A stretch of 64,000 nt of DNA from an uncultured Methylophaga sp. (lineage in GTDB: Bacteria > Pseudomonadota > Gammaproteobacteria > GCF-002020875), in the NCBI GenBank assembly GCA_937877715.1, contig CALEHW010000046.1, forward strand, positions 18,701-82,700. The letters are read 5' to 3'. The notes below the pieces were generated by a model. That model worked only from the letters and a program-made list of their open reading frames with translations, had not been told where the DNA came from and searched no databases. Made by a program: the position numbers and the translations under genes. Each line of letters begins with the position of its first letter. Position 1 is the stretch's first letter. Positions 9,326 through 45,600 of the stretch are shown here, in pieces.

Positions 9326-10024
9326 TTACCGAACCATCAGTCCACGCTCTGTTGCCAGGCCCATGACTGCTGTGATCACGGATTCGATATCCATCTCTGT
9401 TGTATCCAGCATCACTGCATCTTCTGCCGGACGTAACGGAGAGGTGGAGCGTTCAGAATCTCTACGATCACGTTCCTCAATCTCACTTTTAAGGGCGCGA
9501 ATATTAGCATCATCACCTTTCTCGATCAACTGCTTATACCGTCTTTTAGCGCGTTCTTCAGCACTTGCAGTGAGAAAAATCTTTAATGCCGCACCAGGAA
9601 AAACTGTGGTCCCCATATCCCGACCATCTGCCACCACTCCGGGCGGCTGTTCAAAATCACGCTGGCGCTGCAGCAGTGCCGCACGCACGGCTGGCAGAGC
9701 TGCCACTTTGGAGGCTGCGTCCCCTGCAGTTTCGGTGCGAATAGAGGAGGTAACATCCTCTCCATCCAGCAATACCTCCACCCCAAGGCCGGAACGTCCG
9801 GTACCAAATGAGACCCCCAGACTGGCAGCCTCCTCGACCAACAGAAGTTCATTGTCCAGGGCGATCTGTTTGCGTGCCGCCGCAAGCCCCAACACACGAT
9901 AGAGGGCGCCACTATCGAGATAATCCCATCCCAATCTGTTGGCAACAGCCAGCGAGATAGTCCCCTTTCCAGCTCCACCTGGACCATCTATGGTAATTAC
10001 ACCACTGCTGCCATGCTGATTCAT
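9326..10024 (-). CDS. cmk: Cytidylate kinase
   Basis: ITIDGPGGAGKGT P-loop and LDSGALYR motif. Its ATG overlaps the aroA stop (ATGA). Confidence 0.95.
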   Translation of the reverse strand: MNQHGSSGVITIDGPGGAGKGTISLAVANRLGWDYLDSGALYRVLGLAAARKQIALDNELLLVEEAASLGVSFGTGRSGLGVEVLLDGEDVTSSIRTETAGDAASKVAALPAVRAALLQRQRDFEQPPGVVADGRDMGTTVFPGAALKIFLTASAEERAKRRYKQLIEKGDDANIRALKSEIEERDRRDSERSTSPLRPAEDAVMLDTTEMDIESVITAVMGLATERGLMVR

Positions 10025-11340
10025 GACTCCTCTCCAATATTCAAACCTGCCCTAGCCGCCAGAGATGCAAACCCCGGGAAGGATGTATTCACATTGTCAC
10101 ACCCCTCAATCTCGATTAGTGCCGTGGCTCGCAGTCCGGCCATTGCAAATGACATCGAGATACGATGATCATGGTGCGAGTAGACTGCTCCCCCACCAAT
10201 AACTCCACCCTGAATCACGATGCCATCAGGGGTCGGTTTGGCGTCCACCCCGAGAGTAGTCAGCCCATCTGCCATCACCTGGATACGGTCACTCTCCTTG
10301 ACCCGCAATTCCTCTGCCCCGGTAAGAGTTGTCTCCCCATCTGCACAGGCAGCAGCGATAAATAGCACTGGAAACTCATCAATTGCCAGAGGAACCTGAT
10401 CCACCGGGATCTCTATCCCGTGAAGTGGCGCAGATTTAACCCGCAGATCTGCAACCGGCTCACCACCGGAAACTCTCTCATTCAATACCTCAATATCTGC
10501 CCCCATCTCTCTCAGAATATTGATTATCCCGATCCTGGTTGGATTCATCCCGACGTGCTGCAGAGTGAGGTCTGACCCCTCTGATATTGAGGCCCCAACC
10601 AGAAAAAATGCTGCAGAGGAGATATCCGCTGGAACATCAACTCTTGTTGCCTTGAGAGAGCCACCCCCAGTCAAACAGACCCTGCTGCCATCACGTCTTA
10701 CCTCAACCCCAAAGCCGTTGAGCATCCTCTCGGTATGGTCACGGGTGGGGGCAGGCTCGGTAACACAGGTATCACCATTGGCATAGAGACCAGCCAGCAG
10801 AACTGATGATTTGACCTGGGCACTGGCCATTGGCATCTCGTAATCAATCCCTGTTAACTTCGCACCACCTGAAATCCTGAGGGGTGAGGTTCCATCAGGA
10901 TCACTCTTGATCTCCGCCCCCATCTCACCAAGCGGATTGGTGACCCGCCCCATTGGGCGACCGGAGAGGGACTCATCTCCGGTCAGGGTCACATTAAATT
11001 TTTGCCCCGCAAGAAGCCCAGAGAGCAGCCGCATTGAGGTGCCGGAATTTCCAAGATCCAGTGGGGCATCGGGTTCGGTCAGTCCATCCATTCCAACCCC
11101 ATGGATAGTCACCCCTCCATCCGTTGGCCCCTCAATCTCAACACCCATCTGGCGAAAGGCGTTGAGCGTCGCCAGACTGTCCTCACCCTGGAGAAAACCG
11201 CTAATCTCGGTTACCCCCTCCGCCAGCGCACCCAACATTATGGAGCGATGCGAGATAGACTTGTCCCCAGGAACACGAATGGTCCCCTGCAATTTGCCAC
11301 CCGGTTGCACCTTGAATTTCAAACCTGACATCTTGCTCAT
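10021..11340 (-). CDS. aroA: 3-phosphoshikimate 1-carboxyvinyltransferase (EPSP synthase)
   Basis: GTIRVPGDKSISHRSIMLGALAEG and LGNSGTSMRLL motifs, 439 aa. Confidence 0.95.
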   Translation of the reverse strand: MSKMSGLKFKVQPGGKLQGTIRVPGDKSISHRSIMLGALAEGVTEISGFLQGEDSLATLNAFRQMGVEIEGPTDGGVTIHGVGMDGLTEPDAPLDLGNSGTSMRLLSGLLAGQKFNVTLTGDESLSGRPMGRVTNPLGEMGAEIKSDPDGTSPLRISGGAKLTGIDYEMPMASAQVKSSVLLAGLYANGDTCVTEPAPTRDHTERMLNGFGVEVRRDGSRVCLTGGGSLKATRVDVPADISSAAFFLVGASISEGSDLTLQHVGMNPTRIGIINILREMGADIEVLNERVSGGEPVADLRVKSAPLHGIEIPVDQVPLAIDEFPVLFIAAACADGETTLTGAEELRVKESDRIQVMADGLTTLGVDAKPTPDGIVIQGGVIGGGAVYSHHDHRISMSFAMAGLRATALIEIEGCDNVNTSFPGFASLAARAGLNIGEES

Positions 11341-11400: not shown

Positions 11401-13818
11401 CTATAGAGGAGTACCATACAGATCTGCCTGAAAACTGACAAACATATCTCTTATCGCACCAACACTGCCCAGTTCATTCACTGCATCTCTCATTGAGTGA
11501 TATCTCAGCTCCAGCAGGTCAGGCAACTTGCCGCTATCAAGCTCACCCACCCCCTGAGAAATATAGTGATCCAACACAAAAGAGAGGAACTGCTGCTGTT
11601 TATCTCCATATGGCTCAAAAATAGTCTGCTTATGGTTCTTGACCCGCTCCTCTCTGGTGATCGTCGGCAGGGCGAAGGCAACATAACCCAACACATCAAA
11701 CAGATCGCTCTGCTCTGCACCAATCAGCCGCTTGATCTCTGCCAACTGCTCACGGCCATAACCACGCTCCTCCAGCCCAGCCAGCAGTTTGCTACGGGTA
11801 TCGGGATTGCTCCAGAGTTGACGCAACTCCTCCTCATCTCTGAACAACTCCGGGATCTCACCAAACAGTCGCTCAATAAACTGGGTTGCAGAGATCGGCT
11901 TTCCATCCGGGCTCCAGAAGGTGGTCGCACTCATAGATTGGATAGTGCGCTCCTTGCCATCTGCCAGCTTGATCACAATCTTCTCTTGCCGGTTGCAGGC
12001 ACACGGATCATGACCACATATCGGACAGACTGCTGTGTTACATATACATGGAGAGTGGCCACAAACCGGGCAAGGTTCTGGCTCACATTCACAAGGGGTC
12101 TTCCCGCACACCTTGCAAGATTCAGGTTCACCAGTACCACCACCCGTTGGCTCTGGGTCCCCATCCCACTCCGGATCACTGAAATGCTCGTAGGCCTTCA
12201 CAAAATCGTAGATGGTGAAGTACTCTTTATCATCAAACAGACGGGTGCCCCGTCCAATAATCTGCTTGAACTCAATCATCGAGTTGATCGGGCGCATCAA
12301 TACAATATTGCGGATATTCCTGGCATCCACACCGGTAGAGAGTTTCTGTGAGGTGGTCAGAATAGTGGGGATGGACTTCTCGTTATCCTGAAAAACTCGC
12401 AGCCAGCGCTCCCCCTCCAACCCATCATTGGCAGTCACCCGCATGCAATAGTTGGGATCACTGCTCTGCTTGATCTGGTTAATCAGATCCCGTACAGCCA
12501 ATGCATGCTCCTGGGTAGCACAGAAGACCAGCGTCTTCTGACCCTGATCGATCTGCCCCATAAAGAGCTTAACCCGATAGAACTCACGCTCCTTGATCTC
12601 GATAATCCGGTTAAAATCCTCCTCACTGTAGCGCCTGCCCGTCTCAATCTCCCCCTCCACCACATCATCATCAGAGGTGTAGAGATAATCATCCAGCGTG
12701 GTGGCAATCTGCTGCACCCGAAAGGGGGTGAGAAAGCCGTCATTGATCCCCTCCTTGAGTGAGTAGATATAGACCGGATCCCCAAAGTAGGCGTAGGTAT
12801 CCACATTGCCCTTGCGTTTCGGGGTGGCGGTCAGCCCCAGCTGCACTGCGCTGGAGAAATACTCCATAATCATGCGCCAGTTACTCTCATCATTGGCACC
12901 GCCACGATGACACTCATCAATCACAATAAAATCGAAAAAGTCTGGTGGATAGTCGCCAAAATTGGGGGCGGGATTGCCCTCTGCATCCGTACCAGACATA
13001 AAGGTCTGGAAGATGGTAAAGAAGATACTGCCATTCTTCGGCACCTGCCCCTTCTTGCGAATCTCATCGGGCGAGATCCGCACCAGCGCGTCCTCTGCAA
13101 AGGCACCAAAGGCGTTATAGGCCTGATCAGCCAGAATATTACGATCTGCCAGAAAGAGGATGCGTGGTCTTCTTGTAATCTCTTCTCCACCCCTCCACTC
13201 CTTTAGGTTCCAACGACTATGGAAAAGCTTCCATGCCAGTTGAAAGGCAATAAAGGTCTTTCCCGTTCCAGTGGCCAGGGTCAGCAAAATCCTATCTTTT
13301 CCCGCTGCAATCGCCTCCAGTGCGTTGGTAATTGCATTGTGCTGGTAGTAACGTGCCTCCCAGCTCCCCCCCTTATCCTCAAACGGCACCTCGGCAAAAC
13401 GGTCCCGCCAACCACTGCGCTCCACAAAGGTCTCATCCCACAACTCATCCGGAGTGGGATAGTGCTCAACCAGCCCCTCCTCCCCCGTTTTCATATTGAC
13501 CCGATAGATCTTTCTGCCATTGGTAGAGTAGGCAAATCGGCTCTGCAGTTTTTCTGCATAGCGCTTGGCCTGCGCCAACCCCTCCGTCTCGGAGAGTCCT
13601 ACTCGCTTTGCCTCAATCACCGCAAGCTTCTGTCCCCGATAGACCAGCACATAGTCGGCAATATCCTCTCTGGCCCTCCGGCCACCACCCAGAATTCTGC
13701 CGGGTGCAATCACCTCACGCCGCACCCGACTACCATCCACCCTACCCCAACCAGCCTCGGCCAAGGCTGGATCAATCAACTCGGCACGGGTTTCAGCCTC
13801 GTTGAGATCATTCATCAT
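11401..13818 (-). CDS. hsdR: Type I restriction endonuclease subunit R (EcoAI/EcoEI-like architecture): N-terminal PD-(D/E)xK nuclease, SF2 helicase, Cys-knuckle array, EcoEI-R-type C-terminal domain
   Basis: NEAETRAELIDPALAEAGW and ADYVL...VIEAKR (nuclease). LATGTGKT (motif I), VIDECHRG (motif II), LGLTATPKR (III), QIIGRGTRL (VI). Start trimmed from the track GTG at 13824 to the ATG at 13818, which forms an ATGA overlap with the fic stop. Confidence 0.9.
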   Translation of the reverse strand: MMNDLNEAETRAELIDPALAEAGWGRVDGSRVRREVIAPGRILGGGRRAREDIADYVLVYRGQKLAVIEAKRVGLSETEGLAQAKRYAEKLQSRFAYSTNGRKIYRVNMKTGEEGLVEHYPTPDELWDETFVERSGWRDRFAEVPFEDKGGSWEARYYQHNAITNALEAIAAGKDRILLTLATGTGKTFIAFQLAWKLFHSRWNLKEWRGGEEITRRPRILFLADRNILADQAYNAFGAFAEDALVRISPDEIRKKGQVPKNGSIFFTIFQTFMSGTDAEGNPAPNFGDYPPDFFDFIVIDECHRGGANDESNWRMIMEYFSSAVQLGLTATPKRKGNVDTYAYFGDPVYIYSLKEGINDGFLTPFRVQQIATTLDDYLYTSDDDVVEGEIETGRRYSEEDFNRIIEIKEREFYRVKLFMGQIDQGQKTLVFCATQEHALAVRDLINQIKQSSDPNYCMRVTANDGLEGERWLRVFQDNEKSIPTILTTSQKLSTGVDARNIRNIVLMRPINSMIEFKQIIGRGTRLFDDKEYFTIYDFVKAYEHFSDPEWDGDPEPTGGGTGEPESCKVCGKTPCECEPEPCPVCGHSPCICNTAVCPICGHDPCACNRQEKIVIKLADGKERTIQSMSATTFWSPDGKPISATQFIERLFGEIPELFRDEEELRQLWSNPDTRSKLLAGLEERGYGREQLAEIKRLIGAEQSDLFDVLGYVAFALPTITREERVKNHKQTIFEPYGDKQQQFLSFVLDHYISQGVGELDSGKLPDLLELRYHSMRDAVNELGSVGAIRDMFVSFQADLYGTPL

Positions 13819-14726
13819 TGCCACTTACCTGTCATTTTTTGGTACAACATTGCAGCCTCGTAGAACAGGCGAATCAGTGGCCTGTATCTTCCGTGCCGCA
13901 TCGCATACTCCATTGCCGCATAATAGATTGCCCTGTTTTTGCCGTCCAATAGAGGAGGCATCAACCCCGCATTCAAACATTGAATCATCACCAATGCCCT
14001 GCCAACTCGACCATTTCCATCCCCAAACGGGTGGATCAAGATAAAATAGGCATGCGCTCTGGCAATCTCATCCAAAGTCTCTGAGGCAGCGGCCTTATAG
14101 ACCCAGCGGTTAAGCTCCTCCGGAATATCCTCCGGTGCAGTGGTTTGAACCCCATCCAACCGCCCCATCAGACGATGTTTTCTCGAATAGAGACCCGCAT
14201 CATTGTGAACCCCCCGCATCAAGGATGCATGGAGCGACTTAATCCCCTCCTCTGTCACCGAGATCGATTCGGAGCACCCAACCACTCTCTTCCAGATTTC
14301 TTGATAGGTTACAAACCCATTAAACCCCTCATAAAAAGTCGCTCTATCCATGTTTCTGGGAAGCCGCTTCTCATCCATGATTCTGTCAAAATCCTCCCGC
14401 TTCATCCCAGTCTCAATCTCCACCGTCCCATAACTCAGGTGACGGAGGTATGACAGAAGAAGCTCATCATTATGTGACAACTCATCTGGAAGTAAAACTG
14501 GATCAAACTCTTTCTGGCTCTTATCCCACTCAGGAACGGTGAAAACCTTGCAGTAGAGAACATCCAGATCCAAACGGTGGTCTGGCGAGATGGAATCAGG
14601 GTTGTTTTTCCAATTGAGAATGGATCGCCTTGAAACACCTAACACTTCCGACATCCTGGTCGAGTAGACGAAGTGCTCCAGTAAACTCTCAATCTTGGTT
14701 AATTCACTGATATTTTGATATTCCAT
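13815..14726 (-). CDS. Fic/DOC family protein with an N-terminal HTH-like segment
   Basis: Canonical Fic motif HPFGDGNGRVGR (HxFx[DE]GNGRxxR) at 13998-14033. HTH-like segment TRMSEVLGVSRRSILNWKN near the N-terminus. A degenerate inhibitory-helix-like TVEIET lies ~130 aa upstream of the Fic motif. Start set at the ATG at 14726 (MEYQ) rather than the track TTG at 14732. Confidence 0.9.
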   Translation of the reverse strand: MEYQNISELTKIESLLEHFVYSTRMSEVLGVSRRSILNWKNNPDSISPDHRLDLDVLYCKVFTVPEWDKSQKEFDPVLLPDELSHNDELLLSYLRHLSYGTVEIETGMKREDFDRIMDEKRLPRNMDRATFYEGFNGFVTYQEIWKRVVGCSESISVTEEGIKSLHASLMRGVHNDAGLYSRKHRLMGRLDGVQTTAPEDIPEELNRWVYKAAASETLDEIARAHAYFILIHPFGDGNGRVGRALVMIQCLNAGLMPPLLDGKNRAIYYAAMEYAMRHGRYRPLIRLFYEAAMLYQKMTGKWQ

Positions 14727-14754
14727 AACCAATCAATCCACTATTTACAGTTAC

Positions 14755-14790
14755 AATATAGCATCAGATTATCATAAACAAGTGGGAAGC
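14755..14790 (-). promoter_or_regulatory. Possible internal promoter for fic-hsdR (extended -10, TGcTATATT)
   Basis: The minus strand reads cttgtttatgataatctgaTGcTATATTgtaac in the 154-nt hsdS-fic gap. A 7-bp hairpin, gggaagc...gcttccc (14787-14821), lies just upstream. Confidence 0.3.
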
Positions 14791-14880
14791 GATTAAAAAT
14801 TATTGGTTGCTGCTTCCCGCAAACACTTCCCGTTCACTCCACCCTGTCGGCTACCCTCTTGTTGATAAATGATCATTGAA

Positions 14881-16122
14881 TCAGACATAGCTTTCTCCTG
14901 TTGTTGTCAGCTCACCACGGAATGCCTTTTGGAGAATGGACTGTTTAAGTTCGGTAAGGGCGGTTAGTTTTTGTTGGTAGATGGTTTCCAAACACATTCG
15001 CTGCCCAATCAAAATATCCAACAGATGAGAAATTGACTCTTGCTGCTCTCTGCTCAGAGGGTATGAGATAACATTTGAGAGGATGCGTTTGGGGGCAGTA
15101 TGCTTGACCATTGTCCCTGTTGCGGTTAACTTGATGTTATCAATGTATTTCTTTGTTTGAAGAAAGTAATAGATAAAGTGCTCGTCGATCAATTCTTCTT
15201 TCATCACAACCCTTCCAATTCGTTGATTGTGTAGCACATTGGGCTGTTCAACAAATGCTGGCTTCCCCAGTATCTTCATCTTTGATGACAGGTCAGTCAT
15301 TACAATTGTTAAATCACCATCATCAAACTTATAACCATCTGGCAGTTCCCCGATAAGCCTCTTAGTGTTCTTACCAGTGAAATTGAGAGCAGCTTCCTCA
15401 GTGTAATTACCCGGTGTTAGCACTATCGGCATTGCTTTATCACTACTAACAATAAAGTCCTTACCTTTGAAAGCATACCCATGTGTGATCGCCATTACAT
15501 CCCCCAACCTCTTCTCCCCCCAACCCTCACCCCGCTCGGTGAATACCTTATTGAGGTAGCTCTCAAACAGCTCACGGGCATTGTTGAGGTTTCGCTCGGC
15601 ATTGGCTACCGCTTGGTCGATGGCTGTGAAGGCCTTGTCGAGGATGGCGACGATCTGTTTTTGTTCGGGGAGGGGTGGGAATGGTATTTGCACCCCTTTG
15701 AGCTTACTCGCCGAAAGCTCCTTAAATGTTGCTCCTGTCCCAAGGTCATTCATCAAGCCAACACTTCCAAGCAAGAAGTAATAGAGGTACCTATAGTCCA
15801 GTCCATCATACGGAACCAATCCTCTACACCCCTGATTGAATGCCATTGCCTCTGTATTGATAACAAGGTGTCCGATAGGTGCTCTCGTAGAAAGAATGAT
15901 TGAACTTGGCGGTATAAGATTTGCTGAACTACCTTGTAATCCAGCATCACTCAAAGTTCTTGCAGTCTTTGATACTAAGGGAGTACTCCTCTTTCCCATC
16001 TCCGCCGGAGTGATCCAGCGATGCGGTCCACCCCAATTTTCATCAACCTTTGTTTTTGGCGTGCCACCGTTGACGATCTTACTAACCTCATCAAGCCTCT
16101 TCTCTACCCACTCACTACTCAC
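14881..16122 (-). CDS. hsdS: Type I restriction-modification specificity subunit S (two target-recognition domains)
   Basis: Central conserved helix LPPLPEQKQIVAILDKAFTAIDQAVANAERNLNNARELFESYL, and C-terminal conserved helix REQQESISHLLD...LTELKQSILQKAFRGEL. GTG start with a GTGA overlap on the hsdM stop. Visibly more AT-rich than its neighbours. Confidence 0.9.
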   Translation of the reverse strand: MSSEWVEKRLDEVSKIVNGGTPKTKVDENWGGPHRWITPAEMGKRSTPLVSKTARTLSDAGLQGSSANLIPPSSIILSTRAPIGHLVINTEAMAFNQGCRGLVPYDGLDYRYLYYFLLGSVGLMNDLGTGATFKELSASKLKGVQIPFPPLPEQKQIVAILDKAFTAIDQAVANAERNLNNARELFESYLNKVFTERGEGWGEKRLGDVMAITHGYAFKGKDFIVSSDKAMPIVLTPGNYTEEAALNFTGKNTKRLIGELPDGYKFDDGDLTIVMTDLSSKMKILGKPAFVEQPNVLHNQRIGRVVMKEELIDEHFIYYFLQTKKYIDNIKLTATGTMVKHTAPKRILSNVISYPLSREQQESISHLLDILIGQRMCLETIYQQKLTALTELKQSILQKAFRGELTTTGESYV

Positions 16123-17570
16123 ACCATCCCCCCAATCTCATCCAGCACCTTGGTACTCTCGGCATCCAGTGCAGCTATCTCTGTAAGGATCTCCTGCGGT
16201 TCTCGTAGTGGCAGCTCTTCGGGGGCGTTGGGGTTCTTGACCGAGAGGTCGTGGCTCTCGCTGTTGATTTCCTCTACATCCACACTCCAAGACTTCTCAC
16301 TCTCTGCCTTGGTGGCTTGTAGCTCTACAAACTCCTTGAGGTCGTTATCATTGAGCGGGTTGGTTTTCCCCATGTTTCTACCGGGGTCGAGCTGGTAGTA
16401 CCAGATGTTGCGGGTGGGTGCCCCCTTCTCAAAGAAGAGCACCACGGTCTTCACCCCTGCCCCGAGGAAGGTACCACCGGGACAGTCGAGAACAGTGTGT
16501 AGGTTGCAGCTCTCCAGTAGCTCCTGCCGCAGTGCCTTGGAGGCGTTGTCGGAGTTGGAGAGGAAGGTGTTCTTGATCACCACCGCCGCACGTCCGCCCG
16601 CCTTGAGGTATTTGATGAAGTGTTGCAGAAAAAGGAAGGCGGTCTCTCCGGTCTTGATGGGGAAGTTCTGCTGGATCTCCTTCCGCTCCTTGCCACCAAA
16701 CGGTGGATTGGCAAGGATGATGTCGTAGCGGTCACGCTCCTGAACATCAGCCAGGTTCTCGGCCAGCGTGTTTGTGTGGAGCACATTGGGTGCATCAATG
16801 CCATGCAGGATCAGATTCATGATCGCGATGACATAGGCAAGGCTCTTCTTCTCCTTGCCGTAGAAGGTGGTGGTTTGGAGGGTGTGAAGCTGATGAGTAG
16901 TCAGAGCGGAGGAACGAAGATAGTCATGTGCCTCACAGAGGAAACCGGCCGAGCCACAGGCACCATCGTAGATGGTCTCGCCAATGGTAGGGTTGACCAC
17001 CTGGATCATGGCTCGAATCAGTGGGCGCGGGGTGTAGTACTCGCCCCCATTGCGGCCCGCATTCCCCATATTCTTGATCTTGGTCTCGTAGAGATGGGAG
17101 AGTTCGTGCTTCTCTATCTGGGTTCTGAAATGGAGCTGGTCCACCAGTTCCAGTGCATCCCGCAGGGAGTAGCCACTCTGGAAACGGTTTTTGATCTCGG
17201 AGAAGATCTCCCCAATCTTGTATTCAATGGTGTCCGGTGAGGATGCTCTCTGCTTGAACCCTTTGAGGTAGGGGAAGAGCTCACTATCGACGTAGTCAAT
17301 CAGATCATCACCGGTCAGGGCTGTATCGTGGTCGAAGCTACCATCTTCCCGTTTGGGTGCTGCCCAGCGGGACCAGTGGTGCCTCTCGTCAATAATGAAG
17401 GTGTAGCGTTTGCCAACCAGCCCGGCCTCTATGGCACGCTCCCCTTCGAGATCATCAAGATATTTGAGGAAGAGCATCCACGAGGTCTGCTCGGTGTAGT
17501 CGAGCTCGGAGGAGCAGCCCGCCTCCTTCCAGAGGACGTCGTCTATGTTTTTGAAGGTCTGTTCAAACAT
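16119..17570 (-). CDS. hsdM: Type I restriction-modification N6-adenine DNA methyltransferase subunit M
   Basis: MFEQTFKNIDDVLWKEAGCSSELDYTEQTSWMLFLKYLD (HsdM N-domain), DGACGSAGFL (SAM motif I), ILANPPFGG (catalytic NPPF). Start trimmed from the track GTG at 17579 to the ATG at 17570, which follows GAGGTG. Confidence 0.92.
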   Translation of the reverse strand: MFEQTFKNIDDVLWKEAGCSSELDYTEQTSWMLFLKYLDDLEGERAIEAGLVGKRYTFIIDERHHWSRWAAPKREDGSFDHDTALTGDDLIDYVDSELFPYLKGFKQRASSPDTIEYKIGEIFSEIKNRFQSGYSLRDALELVDQLHFRTQIEKHELSHLYETKIKNMGNAGRNGGEYYTPRPLIRAMIQVVNPTIGETIYDGACGSAGFLCEAHDYLRSSALTTHQLHTLQTTTFYGKEKKSLAYVIAIMNLILHGIDAPNVLHTNTLAENLADVQERDRYDIILANPPFGGKERKEIQQNFPIKTGETAFLFLQHFIKYLKAGGRAAVVIKNTFLSNSDNASKALRQELLESCNLHTVLDCPGGTFLGAGVKTVVLFFEKGAPTRNIWYYQLDPGRNMGKTNPLNDNDLKEFVELQATKAESEKSWSVDVEEINSESHDLSVKNPNAPEELPLREPQEILTEIAALDAESTKVLDEIGGMV

Positions 17571-17605
17571 CCTCGTCACCTCTGCCTATAAATGTAATTG
17601 ACAGG

Positions 17606-18463
17606 TTATTCGTAATGATCATCCCGCGCCTTTTTGGCACGTGAAAATAGCGCCTGCAGTGCATCACCATCCTCTGCCCTCACCATCTCCTCCAGCTGTT
17701 CAAGCTCTCTGCGGAATGAACTGACCGCCTCAAGCAGGGGTTCTCTGTTGGCCATGGCAATATCACGCCACATCTCCGGATCACTGGAGGCGATGCGACT
17801 GAAGTCACGGAACCCTCCTGCAGCAAAGCGGAAAATCTCGCGGTGTGTCTCCCGCCTGGAGAGTGAGTCAACCAGTGCGTAGGCGAGCAGATGGGGAAGG
17901 TGGCTGGTTGCGGCCAGCACCTCGTCATGGTGTTCAATCTCCATCTCTATCACCTCGGCGCCCACACTCTGCCACATTGCGGTTACGCTGCGAACCGCCT
18001 CTGGATCACTCTCCCGGAGCGGGGTGAGGATAACCCTGCGTTCCTGGAACAGGGTTGCGAAGGATGATGCGACCCCGCTATTTTCTGTTCCCGCAATGGG
18101 GTGGCCAGGTACAAAGCGTGCGGGGAGAGCCCCAAAGGCCTTTTTGGCATCCCTGACCACGCTCCCCTTCACACTGCCAACATCGGTAATGACGGCCTCC
18201 GGGGAGAGGTGCCCCACCATCTCCGAAAATATCGGCCGCATGGATCCAAGCGGGGTGGCAATAACAACCATATCTGCATCTGTTACTGCATCAGCAACAC
18301 TATCTGCGATAGCATCAATCACACCCAGCTCAACCGCCTGCTGCAGGTTTTCCTGGCTACGACCATAACCGACAACCTCAACAACACTGTTCTGTTCACG
18401 AAGTGCCCGTACCAGTGATCCACCAATCAATCCAACCCCAATCAGTGCAAGACGCTTGATCAT
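17606..18463 (-). CDS. tyrA: Prephenate (cyclohexadienyl) dehydrogenase
   Basis: Rossmann fold LALIGVGLIGGS, the GHPIAG motif, and the hisC-tyrA operon context. Confidence 0.9.
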   Translation of the reverse strand: MIKRLALIGVGLIGGSLVRALREQNSVVEVVGYGRSQENLQQAVELGVIDAIADSVADAVTDADMVVIATPLGSMRPIFSEMVGHLSPEAVITDVGSVKGSVVRDAKKAFGALPARFVPGHPIAGTENSGVASSFATLFQERRVILTPLRESDPEAVRSVTAMWQSVGAEVIEMEIEHHDEVLAATSHLPHLLAYALVDSLSRRETHREIFRFAAGGFRDFSRIASSDPEMWRDIAMANREPLLEAVSSFRRELEQLEEMVRAEDGDALQALFSRAKKARDDHYE

Positions 18464-42630: not shown

Positions 42631-45600
42631 CAGCTTGCTACCAGAGTCTGGGCCTCTTCCATATCCACAGCCACCATACGTGATACTCCTGGTTCATGCA
42701 TGGTCACTCCTGAGAGCTGATCAGAAATCTCCATGGTAGCCTTGTTGTGGGTGATGAAGATGAACTGCACCCGCTCTGACATCTGCTTGACCATATTGCA
42801 GAAGCGCCCAACATTCGCCTCATCCAGTGGGGCATCAACCTCATCCAGCATACAGAACGGAGCCGGGTTCAGCTCAAATATGGAGAACACCAGAGCCACT
42901 GCCGTCAGCGCCTTCTCCCCACCAGAGAGCAGGTGAATGGTGCTGTTTCGCTTGCCTGGTGGTTGCGCCATAATGGTTACCCCTGTATCAAGCAGATCCT
43001 CTCCGGTCATCTCCAGGTGAGCCCGGCCACCGCCAAACAGCCGTGGGAAGTTCTCCTTGAGCCCATCGTTGATCTTCTCAAAGGTCTCCTTGAAACGACT
43101 ACGAGTCTCTCGATCAATTTTACCGATAGCGTCCTCAAGAATATTCAACGCCTCAACCAGATCATCGTGCTGTCGGTCAAGATACTCCTTGCGTTCGGTC
43201 TCGGTCTGATACTCATCAATCGCCGCAAGGTTGATCGGCCCCAAACGCTGGATCTTGCCGGCAATCTCCTCTACATCCTGCTGCCACTGCGCTGCAGTTG
43301 CCTCATCTGGCATCTCCTGCAGCAGAGGCTCGCGCTGGTAACCACTCTCCTGTAGCTGCTCATCCAGAGTCTGGCGACGGACACGTGTCTCCTGCCCCTT
43401 CAGCAACAGTTTTTCATGTGCTGACCGTAGATCCTGGACATCTTTTTCTGACTCCATTCTCTGGCCATCCAACTCACGCAACCGGTGCTCTATCTGTTCC
43501 AGTTGACGACGCGCATCGGCCAACTCATTCTCTACCACCAGCTGCCTGGCAAGATGCTCCTCAAGTTCACTCTTCAGCGTCTGCAGAGGAACCTTCATCT
43601 CCTCTCTAGCCTCCGTTAACTCAATTTTTCTCTGCTCACTTGAATCAAGCTGCTCCTCCATCCGGATCAGCCCGTTGCGTGTTGACTCCAGACGGGTTCT
43701 GGCTGACTCCACCTGCACCGTCAACCTGTGTAGCTGCTCCCTCTTCTCTCTCGCTCGATCCCTGGAACGATCCATGGTCTCGCGCAGCACACCCCGCTTC
43801 GACTCCATCTGCTGGCGCTGCAGCTCACTCTCCTCGGTTGCGGCCAAGGCAACTTCAAGACGTGACCTTGAATCACGTATTCCCTCATTTGCCTGCCGTA
43901 TCTCAGTCTCAATCCGTAGCAGTTCCTCTTCTATCTGTTCCCTGCGACTATTCACCTGCTCCTGACGGGCTAGCTTACCGCTCAATTCAGCCTTACGGGA
44001 AGCGAGCTCTGCTGCCTGCTGGTCAAGTGCGAGCTGCTGCTGCTCCTGCTCCTGCTCCTGCTCCTGCTGGCGTTGACGCCCATCTGCCAGAAGATGCTCA
44101 AGTGAAGCCTGCTCTGACTCAAGCTGTTGCTGCTGTTGATTGAGGGTATGGATGGTCTGCTCTCGCTGCAACAGCCCCTCCTCATTATCATCCTCACGCA
44201 CCACCTGTGACCACTCACTGCCAATCCAGATCCCATCCCTGGTAACCAGAGACATGTCCGCCTCAAGCTGTGAACGGAGCTGCATGGCCTGCTGCAGTGA
44301 ATCCACTCCATAGATACCCTTTAGCAGGGCCGCAGTTGGCGCCTCAGAATCCACCAGAGAGTGGAGTGGTGTTGCCCCATTCAACTTCCTAGAATCCAGC
44401 TCTGTATCACGCTCCAGATCAGACCGGGTAGCGATAAAACTGACCTCTCCTCTCTGTAACTGATCCGCACTCTGTAGCAGATTGTGATCACTCTCAACTG
44501 TCACAGCCTCCAAATAGCGCCCCAGAACAGTCTCCACTGCACGCTCCCAGCCATTTACAACATTAAGTCTCTCCGCCAGACGAGGGGCATCAGCCACCCC
44601 GCTCTGCTGTAACCAGGACCGCACTCCACTCTTCTCTCGCCCCAGGGCATCCTGCTGTAGTGCCTCCAGCGAGGTCAACCGTCCTCGAAGACGTTGTAGC
44701 TCTCCGCGTTCTTCATTGAGCTGTCCGGAAATTCTGCGGTTCTCTTCGCGCTGCGCCATTATTGACTGATGCCGCCTACTATTTAGCTCACGTGCCTGCC
44801 GCAAATCTGCCTCTTCACGTTCCAGAATGCTGCTCACCAGCTCCATCTCACTACTCTCGATTACCGGCAGTTGCTGCTGCTCATCAAACAATCTCTGCTG
44901 TTGTCTGTCGCTATTGAACTGCTGGCGCTCCAGCTGCTCAATGCGCGAGCGAGCAATCTCAGCATCCCTTTTGGGGTCATCAGCCAGGCGATTGAAGTGC
45001 TCCAATTTACCCTGCCACTCGTGCCACTCTTGTTCTGCCTGCTCCCAAACCGCAGAGAGGACGCTATCCTCTCTCTGCAGCTCCTTCAGATCCGGTTCAT
45101 CCCGCAACAGGGACTCCTCCAGCTCCAGAATACGCTGCTGGTCTGCCTTCATGACCGCATTGGCCTCATGCCATACACTCTCCGCCTTGCCGAGATCACC
45201 ATCAAGCTGGTCCCGACGCTCCCTCATCCCCTTGAGATTCTGTTCCGCCCTGGCGATCTCTGCCCCAATCGCATAGAAACGCCCCTGCACCTCATTGAAT
45301 GAGTCATTGGCCTCAGTATGGTGCTGACGCTCTTTTTCAATCTCACTCTCCACGGCACGCTGCTGTGCCAGACGCTCCTCTACCGCAAGCTCTGCCTGAG
45401 TGATCTGCCTCTCCTGTTGCACAGCCTTCTGATCATACTCCCGCCAGCGCAGGGCAAGCAGCTGAGCCTGCATCAACCGCTCCTCCTGTTTGAGGTTACG
45501 GTAGCGCTCTGCAACACGAGATTGTCGTTCCAGTCGACGCAGCTGTTTTGCTATCTCCTCGCGCAGATCATTAATACGGTCAAGATTCTCACTGGTATGA

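Follow-up and report, generated by a model that had tools for sequence, protein, structure and literature searches.

A 64,000-nucleotide stretch of DNA from an uncultured Methylophaga sp. (contig CALEHW010000046.1, positions 18,701 to 82,700; hereafter "the window", to which coordinates refer unless a locus is named) carries a gene for a Fic-domain protein with a putative N-terminal helix-turn-helix (HTH), here called fic, lodged between hsdS and hsdR of a type IB restriction-modification (R-M) operon. We propose, with a probability of roughly 0.6, that fic is an autonomous, autorepressed class II HTH-Fic cassette that occupies this slot as exchangeable cargo, and that its product is probably a toxin-like AMPylase or a defence candidate. 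This proposal is built on what we observed of the domain make-up and motifs of the protein, an operator conserved among its homologues, the polymorphism of the slot and the solitary distribution of the family.

The fic gene (13815-14726, minus strand) encodes 303 aa from its ATG and has 490 homologues. Pfam found only a Fic domain in the product (residues 157-247, E = 2e-15, 57.8 bits against a cut-off of 24); the combination of ABC-ATPase and HEPN domains is absent. The catalytic motif, HPFGDGNGRVGR, read in the sequence as H232-PFGDGNGRVG-R243 (residues 232-243; 13998-14033, minus strand), matches the AMPylating-type Fic motif HxFx(D/E)GNGRxxR and is invariant in a 29-member family alignment except for one G235S substitution. 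An earlier sequence-only reading of this DNA had described the motif as intact, which it is, and had numbered the catalytic histidine 234; that number applies only from a TTG start at 14732, and the histidine is residue 232 of the 303-aa protein. Doc-type kinases carry the motif HxFx(D/N)(A/G)NKR, and we rejected a Doc-type assignment because the motif here is GNGR rather than NKR. We also rejected membership of the SoFic equivalog NF046030 (27.4 bits against a cut-off of 550), since the protein has no Fic_N domain and its HTH is N-terminal. As judged from its motif, the enzyme would transfer AMP to a target protein.

A full-length AlphaFold model (mean predicted local distance difference test, pLDDT, 85; predicted template modelling score, pTM, 0.85) has the all-helical Fic fold, with a Foldseek probability of 1.00 to FICD, CdFic, BT_2513 and SoFic; the top fold matches in the PDB are the class II enzymes FICD/HYPE and Clostridium difficile Fic. 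The sequence-only reading had flagged TVEIET as a degenerate inhibitory-helix motif. We found this motif, T101-V-E-I-E105-T106 (14409-14426, minus strand), to be family-invariant: S-Y-G-T-[IV]-E-I-E-T is essentially unchanged among the 29 aligned members, and the family profile "yGtieiet" aligns with "yhtvaiegn", the inhibitory motif of FICD. Glu105 is hence the likely counterpart of the inhibitory glutamate of FICD, which we take to be Glu234 in FICD numbering, and it lies 127 residues from His232, the same Glu-to-His spacing as in FICD and CdFic. Compared with the class II pattern [S/T]xxxE[G/N], the final position of TVEIET is T and not G/N. We conclude that Fic is probably a class II enzyme with a predicted intramolecular inhibitory residue, Glu105. 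With its inhibitory motif inside the Fic protein, the locus differs from class I Fic toxin-antitoxin pairs, which have a separate antitoxin gene: the 154-nt gap between hsdS and fic (14880-14727, minus strand) holds only a 31-aa open reading frame (ORF), which was not compared with FicA/VbhA-type antitoxins, and downstream there is no room for a gene, the fic stop codon overlapping hsdR.

The helix-turn-helix segment lies at residues 22-41 (14604-14663, minus strand) and is defined by alignment invariants and predicted helices. Helices are modelled at residues 22-29 and 33-41 within a three-helix fold, and the family alignment has R33, R34, N38 and W39 as invariant positions of the recognition helix. 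Residues 22-55 gave only sub-threshold matches to Pfam HTH families (E at least 0.003). When residues 1-80 were modelled separately (pLDDT 80), the sole Foldseek matches were Cro/cI-type HTH autorepressors (probability up to 0.94, E = 0.3-1.4), namely Aca11, HigA2, the N-terminal domain of AcrIIA15 (bound to palindromic DNA), HipB and C.Esp1396I; this fold evidence by itself is not significant. The HTH-like segment of the sequence-only reading has thus gained a predicted three-helix fold and an upstream palindrome, but not an above-threshold Pfam match or a strong Foldseek E value.

Upstream of fic we identified a predicted operator, a perfect inverted repeat GGGAAGC-N21-GCTTCCC (14784-14818, minus strand), that is kept in 17 close homologues. 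In these homologues, which lie in unrelated contexts, the 7-nt inverted repeat takes the form GRGAARY-N21-RYTTCYC about 80 nt before the ATG, with a TTGAYA -35 element inside the repeat spacer and a -10 element, TACCNT, 8 nt after the right arm; an extra direct half-site lies about 13 nt upstream in at least ten of their upstream regions. The corresponding features can be read in the window. A distal direct half-site, GGGAAGT (14825-14831, minus strand), lies 13 nt upstream of the left arm of the operator. The likely -10 hexamer, TATGAT (14771-14776, minus strand), follows the right arm by 7 nt, a position matching the family consensus. The operator brackets the family -35 position, where the window copy is degenerate (TTTTTA). 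A generic promoter scan called no minus-strand promoter in the hsdS-fic gap, TATGAT included, which the family comparison explains by the degenerate -35 of the window copy.

Complementarity between the arms extends over 104 of 126 cells across 18 sequences; shifting the right arm by 1-3 nt lowers this to 26-48 of 126. Arm positions 2, 6 and 7 covary. The window operator is the sole intergenic exact match within the window. Operator-like matches number 7 in total against 2.6 ± 1.6 expected, which is close to chance; further operator-like matches, at 43045 and 62471, were discarded as lying inside long ORFs. We also considered an RNA structure in the gap and rejected it, because shuffled sequences fold as well as the gap RNA (z = -0.01); hence a DNA site is favoured. 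A palindromic repeat placed over the gene's own promoter position, the arrangement of an autorepressor, is present in all 17 homologues. We conclude that fic probably travels with its own promoter and predicted operator, and that the HTH most likely autorepresses fic by binding this putative operator. Within the reach of our searches, the HTH-Fic subfamily and its predicted operator appear to be undescribed so far.

We then compared the occupants of the hsdS-hsdR slot among relatives of the host operon. The closest HsdR (P0122, 94% identity) lies at the same site between tyrA and aroA in a sister strain; it is indexed in 71 contig-collection blocks, and we read 24 marine metagenome contigs. 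The sister-strain slot, seen in L179-L182 (for example L181:2737-5537, compared with window 13815-14880), holds a RhuM-family remnant, a gene with AlbA_2 and HATPase_c_4 domains, a 68-aa ORF and a DUF6364/PIN_3 pair. The RhuM remnant (L181:2731-2970) directly follows hsdS, covers the first ~79 residues and is 51% identical to annotated rhuM genes on Pseudomonas plasmids; it resembles a former cargo gene that has decayed. Between the window and the sister strain, nucleotide homology breaks exactly at the hsdS stop codon and the hsdR ATG. Three other relatives (L183, L184 and L186; HsdR 74-77% identical) lack cargo: hsdS ends and hsdR begins within a shared ATGA in L183 and L186, and in L184 the two genes are 24 nt apart. 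The sister strain having other cargo and these relatives none, we regard the slot as polymorphic for cargo. Fic is the rare allele, seen on 2 contigs, and all 24 contigs read for the sister-strain HsdR carry AlbA/PIN-type cargo. The target-recognition domains of hsdS also vary between the sister-strain contigs.

The junction of fic and hsdR had been taken by the sequence-only reading as an ATGA coupling of the two genes. The overlap exists, as ATGATG (13813-13818, minus strand), in which the fic TGA occupies 13817-13815 and candidate hsdR start codons occupy 13818-13816 and 13815-13813. The second of these, overlapping the fic stop by 1 nt, is the hsdR start conserved in relatives; hsdR begins with ATG-AAy in all five loci compared (the window and four relatives). 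An upstream TGA overlaps the hsdR ATG whether the upstream gene is hsdS, as in the cargo-free L183 and L186, or the PIN gene, as in the sister strain. Because of this recurrence, the ATGA overlap is best read as a property of the hsdR start and its mode of translation, generic to hsdR and no evidence of a partnership between fic and hsdR. Translation of hsdR would rely on an overlapped upstream ORF, and so hsdR would now be translated in the wake of fic.

The fic family comprises 490 clusters of about 295 aa each, with top matches at 59-68% identity, and comes mostly from Methylococcales and other marine or freshwater Gammaproteobacteria. We examined the neighbourhoods of 33 other distinct full-length family loci, which together with the window make 34. 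Type I genes were sought by phmmer with the type IB Hsd proteins of the window, then by Pfam scans and then by a re-screen with added seeds; many family contigs are short, so that the counts of type I neighbours are minimum values. The Pfam scans added L017, with hsdS and hsdR, and L101, with hsdR, both missed by the type IB phmmer screen, and the re-screen found nothing more among full-length members. At 30 of the 33 other loci there was no type I gene in the flanking DNA examined. In L017, a metagenome-assembled genome from Methylococcaceae, hsdS is followed by a 255-aa Fic, the family Fic, a 20-nt gap and hsdR; its type I family differs from that of the window, and hence it is an independent embedding in the same slot. 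L099 (575-8121) has the family Fic in tandem with a 392-aa SoFic-type Fic (Fic_N, Fic and winged HTH), directly upstream of hsdM-hsdS; these are followed by a 365-aa ORF and a DUF3644 gene. In L101, hsdR lies 3.6 kb upstream, within an island of ParE-like, NERD-UvrD and PLD genes. The sequence-only reading had asked what fraction of homologues lie between hsdS and hsdR. Only one other locus (L017) does, although the 4 of 34 loci that lie near type I R-M genes exceed chance.

When Pfam families were counted for the 102 genes at most two positions away from Fic, no recurrent partner emerged (Fic, 4; AAA_22, 3; NERD, RelB, HicB and ResIII, 2 each; N6_Mtase, 1). The family is mostly solitary, with toxin-antitoxin, NERD, PLD or housekeeping genes as neighbours. 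We found no close family members in IMG/VR contigs and, among PLSDB plasmids, only distant Fic-domain matches (<34% identity); on these results we rejected a phage or plasmid origin of the family. A distant member (27% identity; L117:1094-4207) lies 28 nt upstream of a TOTE conflict-system gene whose product joins an AEP-TOTE primase to a ResIII/DEAD helicase. On a marine gammaproteobacterial contig (L002:6425-10745), PLDc_2, the family Fic, RNase_T exonuclease and nucleotidyltransferase (Polbeta) genes form a run next to a transposase; NERD genes and a DUF3427 helicase are present in addition on a variant contig, and the region is a candidate defence island.

The host of the cassette is a minus-strand operon in the order hsdM-hsdS-fic-hsdR, as established by ORF calls and Pfam; both this order and the position of fic between hsdS and hsdR, which is also that of prrC in EcoprrI, agree with the sequence-only reading. 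hsdM (16119-17579, minus strand; 486 aa) encodes the type I methyltransferase subunit (Pfam N6_Mtase, 6.3e-64, and HsdM_N; PADLOC MTase_I, 5e-163), and its end overlaps by 4 nt the start of hsdS (14881-16122, minus strand), which encodes the 413-aa specificity subunit (Pfam Methylase_S, 9e-39, in two stretches). hsdR (11401-13818, minus strand) encodes a restriction subunit of the EcoAI or type IB family (NCBIfam equivalog NF046051, 807 bits against a cut-off of 550) with the Pfam domains ResIII, EcoEI_R_C and HSDR_N. The HsdR equivalog, together with HsdM and HsdS (Pfam, PADLOC), identifies the operon as type IB R-M. This R-M island (11401-17579) sits between tyrA (17606-18463) and aroA (10021-11340) in an otherwise conserved housekeeping cluster, serC-pheA-hisC-tyrA-aroA-cmk-rpsA, and the flanks have a GC content of 0.52-0.58, which drops to 0.41-0.48 over hsdS and the 5' half of fic.

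Two smaller features of the operon deserve mention. Residues 568-609 of HsdR (11992-12117), between the helicase domain and the EcoEI_R_C domain, consist of three tandem C-x2-C-G-x2-P-C-x-C repeats with 12 cysteines, kept in four relatives with 74-94% identity; the pattern suggests a putative zinc-binding insert. The 31-aa ORF of the gap, MSDSMIIYQQEGSRQGGVNGKCLREAATNNF (14793-14888), starts within the last hsdS codons and ends before the fic operator. It is annotated as a gene in the public assembly and is probably spurious; we considered it as a RhuM remnant like that of the sister strain, and rejected this for lack of similarity.

According to the model that we favour, a self-contained cassette, consisting of a promoter, a palindromic operator and the HTH-Fic gene, would have landed in the hsdS-hsdR slot of a type IB operon. 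The N-terminal Cro/cI-type HTH would bind the inverted repeat straddling its own promoter and repress fic, and E105 on the inhibitory helix would be expected to keep AMPylation off until relieved. A stress or phage cue might then relieve autoinhibition, and growth would be arrested as Fic AMPylates an essential protein of the host. By analogy with SoFic and other toxin-like Fic enzymes, Fic probably acts autonomously; embedding would give the cassette co-transfer and co-expression with the R-M system, and the R-M proteins would not be required partners. Binding of the HTH to the operator, AMPylation, toxicity and a role in defence are thus predicted properties of this Fic.

Several observations weigh against this model. 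AMPylation, toxicity and defence are predictions for the family as a whole. The HTH assignment is statistically weak (Pfam E at least 0.003, Foldseek E at least 0.29), and with a degenerate -35 the cassette promoter may be weak in the window. The last residue of the inhibitory motif is T, not G or N, which makes its behaviour uncertain, and the equivalent glutamate in FICD also makes that enzyme a deAMPylase by default. Four of the 34 loci lie near type I R-M genes, two of them directly upstream of hsdR, which is above chance adjacency, and a functional link of Fic to type I systems may thus exist. Moreover, a gene of the PDC-S04 type, whose models match the Fic core as described below, gave no defence when tested in its native host (bioRxiv 10.1101/2024.12.20.629700).

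The sequence-only reading had cast fic as a possible counterpart of prrC, with Fic held by, or monitoring, HsdMSR and firing when a phage anti-restriction protein neutralises restriction. The slot shared with prrC in EcoprrI and the translational coupling of fic to hsdR are what such a guardian would predict, and the independent hsdS-Fic-Fic-hsdR arrangement in another type I family (L017), the pairing of the family Fic with a SoFic-type Fic directly upstream of hsdM-hsdS (L099) and the proposal of multi-level defence for Doc/Fic toxins by Anantharaman et al. 2013 (PMC3710099) point the same way. We nevertheless consider it improbable. At the 30 of 33 other loci with no type I gene nearby, Fic must be controlled without R-M, and the closest R-M relative has unrelated cargo in the slot; PrrC, unlike the fic family, occurs almost exclusively in type I R-M systems. 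Intramolecular inhibition through Glu105 and an operator of its own would make an external silencer unnecessary, and an ATGA overlap is a general trait of the hsdR start. The sequence-only interpretation is thus upheld in part, for a catalytically intact Fic gene in a genuine cargo slot; silencing or guarding by the R-M complex is not borne out. We are similarly doubtful that the HTH-Fic protein is a controller of restriction, acting like a C protein to time or tune restriction in a new host through the promoter feeding hsdR or by modification of Hsd subunits. Such a role would suit a gene directly upstream of and coupled to hsdR with a palindromic operator over its promoter, an N-terminal fold that also matches the R-M controller C.Esp1396I, and the finding, in a scan, of no terminator-like minus-strand site between hsdS and hsdR; however, about 30 loci have the same operator and gene but lack any restriction gene that could be controlled, hsdR is expressed without fic in the sister strain and in the relatives free of cargo, and a purely regulatory role would leave conservation of the catalytic motif unexplained.

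Less improbable, though still unlikely in our judgement, is that fic has no role in defence and was inserted neutrally in a permissive slot, whether as a selfish module for addiction or stabilisation or as a stress-response AMPylase or deAMPylase of a host protein. The neighbours of the family are heterogeneous and include housekeeping genes, with toxin-antitoxin genes frequent among them; a PDC-S04 gene lacked defence activity in its native host; the class II glutamate supports deAMPylation as a default activity, as in FICD and SoFic; and the Fic allele is rare (2 contigs) relative to the sister-strain HsdR (71 blocks). Yet several family loci are clearly defence islands, with NERD, PLD, an SNF2-methylase system, type I R-M or, for the distant member L117, TOTE, and most genes embedded in type I R-M operons are defence-related according to Payne et al. 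2024. We give very little credence to the boldest alternative, that Fic is wired to type I restriction itself, either AMPylating or deAMPylating an Hsd subunit as a switch for alleviation or activation, or sensing the loss of restriction and then stopping translation. Were that so, the adjacency of Fic and hsdR in the window and in L017 would represent a two-layer system in which a shared autoregulated promoter times HsdR.

If the model of an autonomous, autorepressed cassette is correct, the locus would illustrate how interchangeable second-line modules dock in type I R-M operons. What distinguishes two near-identical strains is solely the cargo lying between the stop of hsdS and the start of hsdR, and the stop codon of each cargo overlaps the hsdR start, which would preserve translation of hsdR. 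The HTH-Fic subfamily (490 clusters) is uncharacterised, and with an operator already predicted, its putative autoregulation, inhibitory glutamate and toxicity are directly testable.

The association of Fic proteins with R-M systems is not new. Doc/Fic and RhuM-like toxins were reported within mobile R-M neighbourhoods by Anantharaman et al. 2013 (PMC3710099), who suggested a defence on several levels. Their cases represent the same genomic phenomenon as the window, and a RhuM remnant is also present in the sister-strain slot; however, they occur mainly with RloC/PrrC-like genes, with no mechanism given, whereas the window locus has no HEPN partner. Payne et al. 2024 (bioRxiv 10.1101/2024.01.29.577857) found embedded genes to be frequent in type I R-M, BREX and DISARM systems, with 96.7% co-oriented; those embedded in type I R-M were mostly defence-related and not housekeeping, PrrC was near-exclusively embedded in type I R-M, and one embedded instance was considered enough to justify testing. 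Fic/Doc genes in R-M operons and "guilt-by-embedding" are thus already published, and the window opens no new category. The sequence-only reading had stated that no Fic/R-M partnership was mechanistically characterised, which appears true, although the genomic association has been on record since 2013 (PMC3710099) and was treated systematically in 2024. A paper on a Marinomonas type I R-M system was considered as a Fic precedent and set aside, its main text making no mention of Fic.

The PADLOC PDC models are based on genes that lie inside BREX, DISARM or type I R-M systems (bioRxiv 10.1101/2024.01.29.577857). The Fic core (residues 109-299) matches the PDC-S04 model PDLC04836 (2.8e-25), and five more PDC-S04 models match below 1e-3; these models have no curated threshold, and the N-terminal domain lies outside the match. 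Like PDC-S04, fic is a single Fic gene on the same strand as the type I R-M operon in which it is embedded, which is the feature that defines a PDC; it differs in that its N-terminal 100 residues (HTH and linker) are outside the PDC-S04 models. PDC-S04 is an unvalidated defence candidate with one negative native-host test, and the parts of the Payne et al. 2024 supplements available to us contain no PDC-S04 entry. A precedent for function within a type I R-M operon is TgvAB of Vibrio cholerae, an embedded system for which defence has been proven experimentally without the R-M genes and is stronger with the whole cluster.

PrrC in EcoprrI (hsdM-hsdS-prrC-hsdR) shares with fic its position in the operon and is a toxin-type enzyme in an R-M system; however, PrrC is an ABC-ATPase-HEPN anticodon nuclease without homology to Fic, whereas the fic family is mostly solitary and, by prediction, self-regulated. 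FICD/HYPE and CdFic_0569 are the best structural matches (template modelling scores up to 0.78 on the target), with TVEIET aligned to TVAIEG, but identity is only 17-24%, FICD contains a TPR domain as well as a membrane anchor, CdFic lacks an HTH, and the targets and biology of these enzymes are unrelated to the fic product. SoFic of Shewanella oneidensis is a toxic abortive-infection effector (PMC12249575) that targets EF-Tu for AMPylation and also binds the promoter of its own gene (bioRxiv 10.64898/2026.07.09.737422), is listed as a defence system of Millman 2022 in PMC11514479, and has a small antitoxin, AS1. The window has no AS1-like small downstream gene, the fic stop overlapping hsdR, and SoFic is a protein of ~370 aa with Fic_N, Fic and a C-terminal winged HTH, whereas the 303-aa fic product lacks Fic_N and has a putative XRE-like HTH at its N terminus. 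Nonetheless, the Fic core matches the PADLOC SoFic model (1.3e-17), and SoFic is, as we predict for the fic product, a class II Fic with an internal inhibitory glutamate and a DNA-binding domain; it too is usually encoded by a standalone gene.

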